Positions 16,088 through 22,966 of a stretch of DNA of 39,150 bases are shown piece by piece. The DNA is from Holosporaceae bacterium. GTDB lineage: Bacteria > Pseudomonadota > Alphaproteobacteria > UBA3830. The stretch covers positions 1 through 39,150 of the forward strand of contig JAISOD010000049.1 of the NCBI GenBank assembly GCA_031275895.1, given 5' to 3'. Each line of letters opens with the position of its first letter. The stretch's first letter is position 1. The notes beneath the pieces were generated by a model. It was not told the origin of the DNA. It made no database searches and worked only from the letters and a program-made list of their open reading frames with translations. The position numbers and the translations under genes were made by a program.

Positions 16088-16988
16088 ATGCAATTTATAG
16101 CATTTTCACTTTGCTTTTGCCATTTTACATTTCACGAAAACTCACGTAAATTAGCGAATCGCTATGGTAAATCCGAAGTGAAAACGCTATAATGAAGAAG
16201 AATTTTTTAAAAGCGCGCGAAATATACATGTACAGGAAAAAGATGAAATCGAGGCCTATGAAAAGATTTCCGACACAGAAGTGCGGAGGAAACTGGCGGA
16301 TTTCGTCAAATGTGGGACAAATTCGAGGAATCCGGCCGTAAAAGTTCCCCAAAATCTCGCGGATTTCGTCACATACGAAGACAATTACATGATTTCGCGG
16401 GCTCTGGACGAAATCTGCGCCAACGTCGTCGGCAGAACCATGTTCAAGGTGCTGATGGCAAAGATGGAGATAAAAAAGATGGAAATACAAATATATACGC
16501 ACAATAATCCGTCCTTCGGAAGCATCTATAAAAAAACGCTGTTTACGTCAATACAGATCACTACGAGTCAAACGGGGTCGGCAAAGACGGACGCTATTAC
16601 TTTTATGTTGACTAAGAAAAAGGGATAAAGATGAAACTCAAATACCTTGCCGGATCAATATTCCATGAGTTTTGCCATGCTTTACATGATATCAGCGGAA
16701 CAGAAAGGACAGAAAACGTTTTTTGTTTGGATGCAACTTATCTTAGATATGCCTGGGACGAGGATGAAGAACTGCGCACCATCTGCTGTGGATCACGATC
16801 CCATCTGCGACCACTGTTTTGACATGGTGCAATCCATCATGAAAAGTGAACTGTTTAGGCCGAGGTATAGTCATAAAGGATATACTGGAAGAGGCAGACC
16901 AGCAGCACGCAATCGGAGACTTTTGTACTATTGTATTCCTTTCTCAAAAAAGTACATGAATGGATGGAATGAATATATGATTTCCTAA
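16088..16988 (+). pseudogene. zincin protease gene copy T1, inactivated
   Basis: It has the same RBS and first codons (aggaaaataaagaaATGcaattta) as the intact copy at 20175. It is then split by a 92-bp MITE. Further lesions are a frameshift at the A7 run 16530-16536, an in-frame TAA at 16613-16615 and another frameshift near 16788-16792. Track ORFs 16281..16628, 16631..16822 and 16647..16988 are its pieces. HEFCH is retained. Confidence 0.9.
16098..16189 (+). mobile_element. 92-bp MITE, copy 1 (TA target-site duplication), inserted in codons 3-4 of T1
   Basis: Terminal inverted repeats TAGCATTTTCACTTTG / CGAAGTGAAAACGCTA, flanked by TA at 16096-16097 and 16190-16191. The paralogue at 20175 shows the empty site atgcaattTAatgaa. 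Confidence 0.9.
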
Positions 16989-17002
16989 CCTTCCATTAAC
17001 GA

Positions 17003-17038
17003 AATTCTACTAGGATCACTCCGAATTTTAGGAGAATT
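17003..17038 (+). promoter_or_regulatory. SD-sequestering hairpin at junction J1 (T1 stop to P1 start)
   Basis: AATTCTACTA (17003-17012) pairs with TAGGAGAATT (17029-17038), which contains the SD of P1. There is one mismatch. Confidence 0.6.
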
Positions 17039-17041
17039 ACT

Positions 17042-17725
17042 GTGAAGAAGATACTGATAGTCCTGTTTGTGCTCGGCAATGTAATGGCCATGATGCCGCC
17101 GGATATTCCAAAACTCAATGACTTGGAAAATATTAATCATCGTTTGGACGACACCGAACTTTTCGATATACGTCCCATTTACAACGAACATATTTCGAGG
17201 TTTGGCCCCGAAGGAAAGGAGTTTGTGAACAACATAACGGAATTGAAACTGAAGGAGTGTAAGAATTTAGCCGAATCGCATTTCCAACGGCGTGATACTG
17301 AGGAAGCCAAAAAATGCATGGAATTGCTGGCCGTGACGGCCGGTTGGTCTAGATTTATGGGAAACGAGAATCTCATGGAGCAAATTATTGCACTGTACTC
17401 TGAAGAGGTTACTAGAAAGAGCATCCAATATTATGAATTCATCGGCGACGTAATGTACATGGGACTATACAAAACTCTACGAAAAGAAGATGGAACCACA
17501 GTCTACGCTGATGAAATTGAATCTGATATGGCCGAATTTTTCAAAGAGATGGCTTCGTACATGTACAGGAGAGTAGAATGGTCATTGGATGATAGAAAAG
17601 GGTTGAATAAGTGTTTTGTATACTATAGTACGAGGCCGGAGTACTATCCGGATGATGTTTGGCCGAATTGGCATGCATTGCAGCTTGATGAGGATAGCGA
17701 AACATGTCCTTTGGGGCTTTGGTAA
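17042..17725 (+). CDS. partner protein P1, exported (signal peptide), paralogue of P3
   Basis: GTG start after GGAGAA. N-terminus MKKILIVLFVLGNVMAMMPPDIPKLNDLEN. It aligns along its whole length with ORF 20996..21652. Confidence 0.75.
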   Translation: MKKILIVLFVLGNVMAMMPPDIPKLNDLENINHRLDDTELFDIRPIYNEHISRFGPEGKEFVNNITELKLKECKNLAESHFQRRDTEEAKKCMELLAVTAGWSRFMGNENLMEQIIALYSEEVTRKSIQYYEFIGDVMYMGLYKTLRKEDGTTVYADEIESDMAEFFKEMASYMYRRVEWSLDDRKGLNKCFVYYSTRPEYYPDDVWPNWHALQLDEDSETCPLGLW

Positions 17726-17983
17726 TCTCTGTCGAGAGCAATTCTTACGCAGGGAAACGAAGAACTGCGCACAATTACCCGCTTCAACGGCGATCCCATC
17801 TGCGATCACTGCTTCGACATGGTGCAATCCATCATGAAAAGTGAACTGTTTAGGCCGAGGTACAGCCACAAGAGCTGGAATCACGAGGAAGAACCATCGC
17901 TAAATGACATGTACGCATTTTACAAATGCATTCGCCTTTCTAAAAAATACATGAACGGCTGGCGGAAATATTCGGTCGATTAA
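17726..17983 (+). pseudogene. orphan 3' fragment of a zincin gene (from the EELRT motif to the stop)
   Basis: It is open in the same frame directly after the P1 stop and has no start codon. It reads ..NEELRTITRFNGDPICDHCFDMVQSIMKSELFRPRYSHKS...KKYMNGWRKYSVD*. It lacks the HExxH half. Confidence 0.85.
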
Positions 17984-17997
17984 CCTTCCATTAAGGA

Positions 17998-20992: not shown

Positions 20993-20995
20993 ACC

Positions 20996-21652
20996 ATGAA
21001 AAAGACGCTGATTGCCCTATTTATGTTCGGTAGCGCGGCCGCAATGAATCTGCCAAATATTCCGAAGTTGAACAATTTAGAAAAAAATAGTCATTGCTGG
21101 ATAGCTAATTACAAACTTTTCGACATACGTCCTATTTTTCTTGAACATATTTCGGAATTTAGTCCCGAAGGTAAGGAGTTTGTGAACAACATAACGGAAT
21201 TGAAATTGGAAGAATGTAAGAATTCAGCAGAACAATATTTTTTGCGGCGCGATACGGAAGAAGCTGAAAAATGTATGGAACTGCTTGCTTTGGCGGCCGG
21301 TTGGCCTGGATCGAGATTTGGTCGCCAAAAGAATCTTACGAAACAGATTGTCGCGCTGTATCAGGCGGATAAAGTCACTCAGGATAGCATCATATATAAG
21401 GAATTTTGCGGCGACGTAATGTATAAGGGAATGTATAGAACTTTCAGGAAGGAGGATGGAACTCTTGTTAGTGGCGATGAATTTAATACCCATAAGGCGG
21501 AATTTTTTAGATGGTATGCACAAGAAATGTATAGTAGCACACAAAGCAAATCGTTTTCTGATAGAAATCTCCATGATTTTGTATCGTACAGTACGTCTCC
21601 CGAATATTATCCATACAATGTTTGGAAAAATTGGCGGAAATTACGGCGATAA
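20996..21652 (+). CDS. partner protein P3, exported (signal peptide), paralogue of P1
   Basis: MKKTLIALFMFGSAAAMNLPNIPKLNNLEKN.. It shares blocks with P1 (FDIRPI, EGKEFVNNITELKL, RRDTEEA.KCMELLA, GDVMY, RKEDGT, PEYYP). Confidence 0.75.
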   Translation: MKKTLIALFMFGSAAAMNLPNIPKLNNLEKNSHCWIANYKLFDIRPIFLEHISEFSPEGKEFVNNITELKLEECKNSAEQYFLRRDTEEAEKCMELLALAAGWPGSRFGRQKNLTKQIVALYQADKVTQDSIIYKEFCGDVMYKGMYRTFRKEDGTLVSGDEFNTHKAEFFRWYAQEMYSSTQSKSFSDRNLHDFVSYSTSPEYYPYNVWKNWRKLRR

Positions 21653-21704
21653 ATACGCCTCCAAAATTTTTATGAACGGCTGGCGGGAATATGCTGTAAA
21701 TTAA
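21653..21704 (+). pseudogene. 52-nt 3' stub of a zincin gene
   Basis: atacgcctccaaaatttttatgaacggctggcgggaatatgctgtaaatTAA (YASKIFMNGWREYAVN*) aligns with the T3 3' end INASEVFMNGWRKYSID*. It starts right after the P3 stop. Confidence 0.8.
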
Positions 21705-21718
21705 CCTTTCATTAACTA

Positions 21719-21754
21719 AATCCTCCTAGGATCACACCGGATTTTAGGAGGATT
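21719..21754 (+). promoter_or_regulatory. SD-sequestering hairpin at junction J4 (T stub to P4 start)
   Basis: AATCCTCCTA (21719-21728) is the perfect complement of TAGGAGGATT (21745-21754). The stem can extend through GGATC/GATTT with G-U pairs. ATG lies at 21758. Confidence 0.65.
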
Positions 21755-21757
21755 ATC

Positions 21758-22966
21758 ATGAAAAAGTTGTTCTTTTTTGTCGCAGCATTTGGATGCTCGA
21801 CGTCATCTTGTCTGGATATGGACGTTGTATTTTCCAACCCTCAATGGTCTAAATCTATTGCGGATCTTAAAGGTCCTTTTGGTTTGGCGCGTAGATATCC
21901 AGTTTCTGATTGGGACCAGATACAACCCGAAGTGGCGAAAAAAGCATTACATGAAATGATAACGGTATCTTGGGGGAATATGACCCACGAAGAACAAAAC
22001 AAATGTTTGCTAAAAGAAAATGAAATTTTTGCGTTTGAGAAAATGCCTGATGAAAACGCTAAAATGCTATTAGCCTACTTCATCGAGTCGTCGGGATGGT
22101 GGGTGTTTCATAATAAGGACAATCCAGACCTACATAATAGAATAAGCGAAGAATGGAAGACATTAGAATCGGATAAGCTGCTAAATGAGATAGTAGATTT
22201 TTTTATTGCTTGCTTGACTCCCGAAGAAAAGAGAACAATGGTACGGTCGAGAATATACGCTGGCGAATGCAAAATTCCAATTGAGAAATCGTTAAAAAAT
22301 CTTGACGAGCTGTCTGACGACATAATATATGGGGTTGGTTTCGGACTTTTAAAAGGTATGGTAAGCATCGATCACGACGTCATCAATGGCATGCCGAAGG
22401 AAGAGTTTTGGAAATTATCGGATGAAGAATGGAGAAAATTCCATAGTTTTCATAAAGACGAGGACGAGGATTATGATACAACCGAGTTGCAAACGGCTCT
22501 TCGTGCTCAAATCGGCGGAGACCAAGTTGCGCAGGAAGCGTTTCGGATTTTCCTTGATTCTAGGCCGCGAGCTTTGATTGATTTCTTCTGCGATAATCAT
22601 ACGAAAATGACTCCGGACAATGCTAAAAGATTCAAAGAGCTTTCAATTTTAATCGCGCCTGGGGTTGAATCTGAATTGCATAAGCAAAAAGTGATAGGGA
22701 TCATAGGCGATCAAGATTCGGTTGTGTCAACTGATTTTCAGTTTCTGCCTTTCTGTACCGACATGCTATTCGCCGGGGCTGTCGAAAGCGCTAAACAAGG
22801 ATATTTCACGATGGCGATGATGTTTAAGGACGCATACAGAAGCGCCGGAGGAAAAGGCAGCGTTGAAGAAAGCATGTACGGCGAGGCAATATTCGAAGAA
22901 GATTGGAAATACATAGATTATGATCTGAAATCGGTGTGGCGCAATTTGAAATTCCCGAGGAAATAA
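21758..22966 (+). CDS. partner protein P4 (402 aa), exported/possible lipoprotein, unrelated to P1-P3
   Basis: MKKLFFFVAAFGCSTSSC signal or lipobox-like N-terminus. It occupies the partner slot behind the conserved junction. Confidence 0.7.
   Translation: MKKLFFFVAAFGCSTSSCLDMDVVFSNPQWSKSIADLKGPFGLARRYPVSDWDQIQPEVAKKALHEMITVSWGNMTHEEQNKCLLKENEIFAFEKMPDENAKMLLAYFIESSGWWVFHNKDNPDLHNRISEEWKTLESDKLLNEIVDFFIACLTPEEKRTMVRSRIYAGECKIPIEKSLKNLDELSDDIIYGVGFGLLKGMVSIDHDVINGMPKEEFWKLSDEEWRKFHSFHKDEDEDYDTTELQTALRAQIGGDQVAQEAFRIFLDSRPRALIDFFCDNHTKMTPDNAKRFKELSILIAPGVESELHKQKVIGIIGDQDSVVSTDFQFLPFCTDMLFAGAVESAKQGYFTMAMMFKDAYRSAGGKGSVEESMYGEAIFEEDWKYIDYDLKSVWRNLKFPRK

Follow-up and report, generated by a model that had tools for sequence, protein, structure and literature searches.

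Peptidase families M91, with the type III effector NleD of enteropathogenic and enterohaemorrhagic Escherichia coli (EPEC/EHEC), and M27, with the light chains (LCs) of botulinum neurotoxin (BoNT) and tetanus toxin, are the closest described relatives of the genes treated here. M91 is the family closest to M27, and common to both are the HExxH motif, a Glu ligand downstream of it and an R..Y motif (PMC6367388); the characterised members of both families cut eukaryotic proteins (PMC6367388, PMC9846239). The stretch of DNA analysed, 39,150 nt of contig JAISOD010000049.1 from a Holosporaceae bacterium (the whole of it is called ‘the window’), contains between 16.1 and 23.0 kb an array of three copies of a protease gene (‘T’), two 3′ remnants of T and four genes for partner proteins with signal peptides (‘P’), with a repeated junction between them. 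These T–P modules represent a real, previously undescribed effector-type gene family rather than a wholly new kind of system. The initial annotation of this DNA, made from the letters alone, had placed the genes of the array correctly, every one of them being present in the six-frame list of open reading frames (ORFs).

The order of the genes also has described counterparts. In the periplasm-acting type VI effector–immunity pairs Tae/Tai and Tle/Tli and in the serralysin pair AprA–AprI/Inh, a signal-less enzyme is followed by the gene for a Sec-exported periplasmic protein, as T is followed by P. T–P differs from them in having no linked secretion genes, T is unrelated to those enzymes, Inh is a beta-barrel whereas P is all-alpha, and P is missing where T sits in another phylum. 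The orphan toxin–immunity arrays of Rhs and contact-dependent inhibition (CDI) systems resemble the present array in their tandem modules, in 3′ gene fragments followed by intact genes and in recombination at a conserved junction; their 3′ fragment, however, is the variable tip of the toxin, with the conserved part upstream, whereas in T–P the arrangement is reversed, the 3′ end being conserved and the downstream gene variable. In contrast to Rhs, CDI, LXG and PAAR polymorphic toxins, T has no N-terminal trafficking or delivery domain, and the downstream gene expected of an immunity function is always there in Holosporales and never in Puniceicoccales. Finally, the eukaryotic association module of Wolbachia prophage WO (cifA–cifB) is likewise prophage cargo in an obligate intracellular alphaproteobacterium and consists of host-directed, duplicated and often pseudogenised gene pairs, but T–P has no homology to Cif proteins and its partner is Sec-exported.

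The T family and its occurrence

The intact copy, T3 (20175..20942; all elements of the array lie on the plus strand), encodes a 255-aa zincin of the NleD/BoNT-LC type without a signal peptide, with the motifs HEFCHALH and DEELR and with 11 cysteines. It was modelled with AlphaFold2 (AF2) at a predicted local distance difference test score (pLDDT) of 89.5 and a predicted template modelling score (pTM) of 0.90. A protein search returned 76 relatives, all annotated as hypothetical, and T is conserved over its full length, with no Pfam domain except weak M91 matches. Thirteen positions are invariant in an alignment of 48 relatives, namely H141, E142, H145, H148, W173, E177, E178, C184, D188, C191, H193, R210 and H213. 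The family conserves HExxHxxH and a Glu-Glu pair 32–33 residues downstream of it, and one Glu of E177/E178 is the probable third zinc ligand. It also conserves a Cys/His cluster (C184, C191, H193 and C194), which is missing from T-like proteins bearing signal peptides, and a C-terminal MxGWxxY helix; as a side observation, T proteins end in a conserved MxGW(K/R)xY.

Peptidase_M91 is the commonest Pfam match, found in 12 of the 48 family members at E<0.1 (best E 1e-4). Among 39 distant relatives found with the T profile, 12 match M91 (best E 3.3e-7), and one relative scanned separately, P0193, passes its gathering score (25.8 versus 25 bits). NleD of E. coli O157 Sakai aligns with the T profile in hhalign (E 2.6e-5, probability 75%), the alignment covering an upstream LDxI..GR helix, FHExxHxxH (FHELLHVFH with FHEFCHALH) and a downstream EE.RT (EEARTVG with DEELRTI); a PR..Y..H stretch further downstream is alike by eye. 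NleD and T are both small, free-standing zincins of ~230–255 aa, and both are prophage cargo. They differ in that T3 remains under the M91 gathering score, in the Cys/His cluster and C-terminal helix particular to T, in that a type III secretion system (T3SS) is not known for T hosts, and in that NleD has no linked exported partner gene.

With the BoNT/tetanus LCs, T has in common HExxHxxH, a Glu ligand ~30–35 residues downstream and the lack of a signal peptide, and BoNT LCs are the sole folds of the Protein Data Bank (PDB) in the top 50 Foldseek matches of the T3 model, although these matches are weak. T is ~170 residues shorter (TM-score ~0.3) and is a 255-aa single domain without a heavy chain, a belt or an NTNH/OrfX neighbourhood; the RxxY motif is not demonstrated in it. 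A third relative is Tpe2 of Pseudomonas aeruginosa, a predicted type VI secretion system (T6SS) effector with an M91 domain (PMC9846239). It is likewise an M91-like domain outside the T3SS, and the fold uses different secretion routes. The Tpe2 domain is C-terminal in a larger protein encoded within a T6SS cluster, with no immunity gene predicted (PMC9846239), whereas T is minimal, phage-borne and accompanied by a partner. On sequence and modelled fold, T is best regarded as a new zincin family that stands close to NleD and the BoNT LC and is a formal member of neither of their families. The proposal of a free-standing zincin near NleD/M91 and the BoNT LC was in this way supported by Pfam, hhalign and weak Foldseek matches of the AF2 model. 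No published description of the family was found in a limited literature search. Neither T nor P has a match in PADLOC, NCBIfam or PHROGs, and on that account neither a described defence system nor any named function of phages was retained as an explanation of T–P.

A scan of one genome per species yielded 26 T loci, all of them in metagenome-assembled genomes (MAGs), which are labelled Holosporaceae, Holosporales, ‘Alphaproteobacteria bacterium PG1894’ or Puniceicoccales only. Sample codes such as Gsp477, Roe453 and Nm470 designate lower termites, which harbour flagellates (PMC11707648); Holosporales live in obligate association with eukaryotes, for the most part protists (PMC11909080). T-profile scans of the JGI metagenome contig collection and of IMG/VR retrieved no relatives, and tblastn with the T3 protein retrieved none from GenBank phages or PLSDB plasmids. 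The T proteins of 11 Puniceicoccales MAGs (L012–L021 and L028) are 34–38% identical to T3 and 44–81% identical among themselves. In all 11 loci T is solitary, amid changing housekeeping genes and with neither a partner homologue nor a conserved neighbour, so that T can exist without P. The presence of the same protease family in a second phylum of the same habitat implies cross-phylum transfer.

T–P modules, their partners and the junction

The T copies of the window are in different states of preservation. T1 (16088..16988) is a pseudogene with ~80% column identity to T3 in a DNA alignment; after codon 3 it is interrupted by a 96-nt miniature inverted-repeat transposable element (MITE), it further carries a 63-nt insertion and is frameshifted twice, and its HExxH region is out of frame with stops. 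The earlier description of T1 as split by a MITE and frameshifted twice agrees with these lesions, the MITE being present in three copies and the frameshifts being visible both in the DNA alignment and in tblastn. A 3′ fragment of T after P1, equivalent to T3 residues 176–255 (17756..17983; tblastn 59% identity, E 2e-30), had been drawn from 17726; the fragment is real, and its detectable homology starts at ~17756. T2 (18289..19223), a divergent copy of the protease gene, was traced by tblastn with P0096 and P0108 (33–38% identity); it is 31% identical to T3 around HExxH, is frameshifted once and has an N-terminus of the Sec type. This N-terminus qualifies the earlier contrast of a signal-less T3 with exported partners, which holds for T3 and for the partners themselves. 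The sole defect of T2 is a 1-nt shift in a T7 homopolymer (18538–18544), which could reflect an assembly error or slippage-based phase variation rather than true decay. The last copy is reduced to a stub, 52 nt from the T 3′ end that directly adjoin the stop codon of P3 (21653..21704; tblastn to T3 residues 241–255).

Of the four partners, P1 (17042..17725) and P3 (20996..21652) are paralogues, as proposed earlier, with 58% identity. P1 is an ORF with a Sec-type N-terminus; P3 is all-alpha, its AF2 model being an eight-helix bundle (pLDDT 71.5). P2 (19282..19935), the exported partner of T2, has no detectable kinship to the other partners and is followed by a stub resembling its own start (19940..20007), recognised by reading the sequence against the P2 start. 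P4 (21758..22966), a 402-aa exported protein, combines a unique N-terminal half with a domain at residues ~227–348 that matches partners of other loci (blastp E 3e-12 to 5e-11). An intact orthologue of P4 with 65% identity lies 3′ of a 65-aa T fragment in L030, a locus from another sample.

Related genomes had been named beforehand as the place where the linkage of T and P could fail, and it recurs there: in every one of the ~16 Holosporales loci with downstream sequence, an exported ORF of 213–398 aa starts 21–75 nt after T or a T remnant. This survey used BLAST on the retrieved loci; a word-indexed protein search gave few partners (three for P3 and seven for a profile of the commonest type). 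By BLAST the partners sort into two types, ‘A’, the most common type elsewhere, which includes the C-terminal half of P4, and ‘B’, which comprises P1, P3 and the partner of L035. The L024 partner is an A–B fusion and another partner has two A domains. Profile–profile comparison of A with B (hhalign, probability 95.6%, E 1.2e-8) makes them one superfamily, taking in P1, P3 and the C-terminal half of P4, whereas hhalign related neither P2 nor the N-terminal half of P4 to the A or B profile. The view that P4 is unrelated to the other partners therefore falls, since the family of its C-terminal half, the most frequent one among partners of other loci, is distantly homologous to P1 and P3; the broader view that each T has a different partner is likewise not supported. 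Partner type does not track the T tree, a rough neighbour-joining tree of few sequences, some of them partial, and this pattern argues against strict T–P co-divergence.

Two features of the partner sequences deserve mention in their own right. Among 25 exported proteins, ~18 have a predicted signal peptide whose last, small residue is directly followed by Met, so that the mature protein would start with Met (for instance AAA|MNLP, VMA|MMPP and ILA|MDIP); the set includes P1–P4, the ORFs starting at 23192, 23847 and 24408, and partners in L005–L009, L022, L030, L032, L035 and L036. One possibility is that this Met was the original start codon and has been captured, another that it is an internal start giving a cytoplasmic isoform. 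A C-terminal Trp motif, (V/I)WxNW or FxxxWC.D, is common to A- and B-type partners (P1, P3 and P4; L008, L024, L035 and L036); it may be a signal that they share or a footprint of recombination.

The pairing of a signal-less protease with a downstream gene that always encodes a signal peptide would suit an interbacterial toxin–immunity system. A T6SS or some other one-step system would place T in a competitor's periplasm, P would be the periplasmic immunity protein, and a stub followed by P would be an orphan immunity gene, in line with the intact partners that persist 3′ of T remnants in the window and in L030. This explanation, which we regard as unlikely, is favoured by the duplication and decay of the array, typical of arms-race loci, by the T6SS carried by nearly all Holosporineae/Holosporales (PMC11909080) and by the predicted T6SS effector with an M91 domain (PMC9846239), although the latter was predicted without an immunity protein (PMC9846239). 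The 11 Puniceicoccales MAGs that retain T alone are difficult to accommodate in it, and so is the combination of a conserved T with a variable P whose type is not in step with the T tree. In the signal-less clade, the Cys/His cluster suits a reducing compartment better than the periplasm, and obligate intracellular bacteria encounter few competitors. We know of no antibacterial member of M91 or M27. As the initial annotation had noted, no secretion-system gene was seen among the scanned ORFs of the window; vgrG, hcp, PAAR and T6SS clusters are absent from these ORFs and from the called genes of the related loci. In neither T nor P does any Pfam family exceed its threshold, which also holds for the delivery domains Rhs, PAAR, LXG and CdiA.

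The modules are connected by a junction unit of ~112 nt in four copies, made up of the final ~50 nt of T, a spacer of 53 nt, a ribosome-binding site (RBS) and the first partner codons (MKK start). The copies are 68–84% identical to the reference copy, and the RBS part occurs a fifth time at 23821–23866, beyond the span described initially. One copy (17984..18056; repeat families D2 and D6, and alignment) has lost the partner start codon; this dead start, the 52-nt T stub and the P2-like stub had all been noticed before and were seen again by tblastn, alignment and sequence reading. The locus recombines at this conserved junction, as had been suggested for the T 3′ end. The leader of each partner gene consists of the T 3′ end and the spacer, and this accounts for the T stubs.

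The spacer is predicted to hold a 15-bp stem in which an anti-Shine–Dalgarno (anti-SD) sequence (CCUCCU) pairs with the SD sequence of the partner (AGGAGG). This hairpin covers the RBS of P3 (20957..20992; -18.5 kcal/mol, z -4.9), precedes P4 (21719..21754; -21.3 kcal/mol, z -6.5) and is found as a weakened copy before P1 (17003..17038; -8.3 kcal/mol, z -0.86). At the P3, P4, L024 and L030 junctions the stem ranges from -18.5 to -21.3 kcal/mol (z -4.9 to -7.7), and in an alignment of seven junctions 88.6% of cells pair, versus 38–61% with the partner strand slid. The conservation of the junction is likely, in part, that of a translational control element.

A related arrangement is seen in L037 (positions 4001–8951 of a 95-kb contig), where a T2-type gene with a signal peptide and two exported paralogues are found together with a T lacking a signal peptide, a partner of type A and a T fragment. 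The C-terminal 37 residues of the T2-type protein recur (46–49% identity) in the two exported paralogues 3′ of the gene, with 55-nt spacing. The junction of conserved 3′ end plus spacer thus recurs in a different type of module.

With T1 dead, T2 frameshifted, two T copies truncated, one partner start lost, and MITEs and degraded phage genes around the array, the locus might be taken for evolutionary debris, that is, a decaying multigene family with no present function in this genome. Such a verdict seems scarcely credible in view of the intact ORFs of T3, P1, P2, P3 and P4, of catalytic residues that are invariant in 48 family members from two phyla, of the P4 orthologue kept intact at 65% identity in another sample and of an RBS hairpin retained across contigs.

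The prophage carrier and its surroundings

The array is cargo. It lies in a rearranged, partly degraded prophage or element resembling a gene transfer agent (GTA), in cargo position between lysis genes and terminase, amid phage structural and lysis genes, with T and P themselves lacking a PHROG match. Upstream of it are a phage portal (4224), an S78 prohead protease (5341), an HK97-type capsid (5852) and a head–tail connector (6986). An OmpA-like gene (9088–10068) and an EamA gene (10193–11113, minus strand) are interspersed in this head module. Directly 5′ of the array is a SleB-type cell-wall hydrolase, a phage endolysin (15238..15657, plus strand; Pfam Hydrolase_2 E 1.1e-14, PHROG endolysin E 2.5e-17), followed by a small membrane protein with a hydrophobic segment and a weak match to a PHROG of no known function (15661..16017, plus strand), which is presumably holin-like. 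The large terminase subunit that bounds the cargo region (25861..27081, plus strand; Terminase_6N E 2.2e-23, Terminase_6C E 1e-11) is placed 3′ of the lysis genes and cargo, not 5′ of the portal. The interruption of the head module (4224–15657) and the displacement of the terminase point to a rearranged prophage or GTA-like remnant. The phage-derived region is flanked by DnaB (2459–3919) on one side and by ffh (30951–32306) on the other.

This setting was overlooked when the architecture was said to match no described system, since it is the same kind of location as that of nleD in E. coli O157; in strain Sakai, nleD is terminal cargo of prophage Sp3. Similar surroundings are found elsewhere: in L034, L035 and L036, T–P modules lie beside fragments of endolysin, tail, sheath/tape-measure, capsid and decoration genes, which indicates that the modules outlast their carrier phages.

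A position directly after an endolysin and a membrane protein raises the possibility of a function for the phage itself, with T as an ImmA/IrrE- or SprT-like regulatory or maintenance protease or a lysis accessory and P as an envelope or superinfection-exclusion protein. The T3 model has weak matches to IrrE-N-like and SprT-like proteins in the viral-structure library BFVD, and five distant relatives have SprT-like Pfam matches; M91, however, is the better and more frequent match. T has no match to the ImmA/IrrE (M78) family, and no helix-turn-helix (HTH) gene, hence no HTH repressor, is adjacent in the window. Given also that neither PHROG families, GenBank phages nor IMG/VR contigs gave a match, that the Puniceicoccales T genes lie amid housekeeping genes and that the modules survive the decay of neighbouring phage genes, a phage function appears very improbable.

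A two-gene operon in the prophage cargo of an intracellular symbiont, with fast diversification and arrays of paralogues, also recalls host-aimed addiction or killer modules, for which Wolbachia CifA/CifB and the phage-linked killer trait of Caedimonas offer comparisons. T would then be a toxin released into the protist and P an antidote or modifier guarding the cells that carry the symbiont; the killer trait of Holosporineae is indeed phage-linked and presumed to consist of a toxin and an antidote (PMC11909080). Analogy is the sole basis of this idea, P has no likeness to CifA in sequence or fold (a CidA chain is a chance-level match, E 3.8) and T is solitary in Puniceicoccales, all of which makes it very unlikely.

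Beyond P4, three further small genes for signal-peptide proteins extend the array without T genes (23192–23704, 23847–24353 and 24408–25196, plus strand), so that the run of such genes reaches 25196, past the span described initially. No family match was found for any of the three ORFs; the junction RBS/start copy lies among them at 23821–23866. The ORF at 24408–25196 contains five 45-nt tandem repeats (24889–25177), translated into 15-aa repeats, and that at 23847–24353 contains two 51-nt repeats (24162–24263). Two large minus-strand ORFs, 34362–37415 (1017 aa) and 27095–29053 (652 aa), match no family and begin like signal-peptide proteins or lipoproteins, and the 1017-aa protein also has a signal-peptide ending in ‘SAM’.

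The MITE is present in three near-identical copies (16098–16189, 25169–25260 and 33103–33194, plus strand) with TA flanks; it is 96 nt long, and its inverted ends, TAGC(A/G)TTTTCACTT, form a terminal repeat matched six times versus 0.08 expected. One copy disrupts T1, one closes the array and the third adjoins an HNH endonuclease gene (32379–32990). A 160-nt leader repeat stands upstream of T2 (18077..18236) and again upstream of T3 (20004..20163), with 88% identity between the copies, and is not found before T1. It includes the perfect 14-bp palindrome CGTGAATATTCACG (18194–18207 and 20121–20134), which occurs twice versus 0.19 expected and could be an operator.

The proposed role of T and P

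The explanation preferred here, tentatively and with the balance not quite even, is a composite one: prophage cargo would encode a host-directed protease effector and a co-regulated exported partner, the latter being a guard or inhibitor, or else a co-effector. In an intracellular bacterium of Holosporaceae type from the lower-termite gut, a degraded prophage or GTA-like element would carry as its cargo tandemly duplicated, recombining and partly decayed two-gene modules. T would be a compact zinc endopeptidase from a new family with ties to NleD (M91) and the BoNT LC (M27). The T3 type would act in a reducing compartment, because the Cys/His cluster is missing from signal-peptide relatives, and its substrates would be proteins of the eukaryotic (protist) host, as suggested by the analogy to characterised M91 and M27 members and by the lifestyle of its hosts. 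Its entry into the host may depend on one-step secretion or on lysis of the phage type. P is Sec-exported and all-alpha, and the superfamily to which it belongs evolves fast. Its gene is apparently co-transcribed with T, and in this lineage the 15-bp hairpin would lock the RBS and so gate the synthesis of P, possibly in coupling with the translation of T. P would assist T without being needed by it; it would most likely be a periplasmic or extracellular guard or inhibitor that binds T, or else a second effector. Duplication and deletion between the T-3′-end leaders would shuffle the partners and leave T stubs behind.

Several observations weigh against this explanation. Concerning the nature of T, T3 scores only 16.1 bits against Peptidase_M91 (PF14891; E 0.015), below the gathering threshold of 25 bits; the T profile found no chain among PDB sequences; the Foldseek matches of T3 to BoNT LCs are weak (best E 0.019, probability 0.75–0.82, TM 0.28–0.35), and the IrrE-like and SprT-like matches in BFVD are similarly weak, with a SprT-like Pfam match in 5 of the 39 distant relatives. 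The role of P is a guess, its P3 model having no fold neighbour in the PDB (best E 0.84), and periplasm-acting effector–immunity pairs show the same succession of a signal-less protease and a signal-peptide protein. As to the hairpin, covariation is almost nil across the seven junctions, so that the structure is argued from thermodynamics and conservation only, and modules with spacers of 21–38 nt have no stem. The hairpin begins 15 nt 3′ of the T stop codon, where the footprint of a ribosome at that codon may not reach it, which weakens translational coupling. The protist host is deduced from taxonomy only. The solitary T of Puniceicoccales weakens the strict toxin–immunity and the strict binary-effector readings alike.

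A bolder version, which we consider decidedly unlikely, would make T–P a new prophage-borne two-component module for host manipulation in protist endosymbionts. The protease would be released into the host and a diversifying partner would bind it as an antidote, targeting subunit or specificity switch, while swapping of partners at the junction would generate compatibility types of a killer- or addiction-like nature; the protease would have crossed between two phyla in the niche of termite-gut flagellates.

With the host-directed effector and its co-regulated partner as the preferred explanation, T is a candidate effector common to two unrelated termite-gut lineages, Holosporales and Puniceicoccales; to our knowledge, no effector is known for either. 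Degraded prophages are suggested as effector reservoirs in protist endosymbionts, like prophage WO in Wolbachia, and the linkage to an exported partner together with the RBS-sequestering hairpin offers a concrete handle on the control of the protease. With T, the small group of BoNT LC and NleD relatives, the origin of which is an open question (PMC6367388), also gains a branch that is compact, well modelled and apparently restricted to one niche. The finding is of moderate relevance to the evolution of BoNT/NleD-type proteases and to the effector biology of uncultured protist symbionts.

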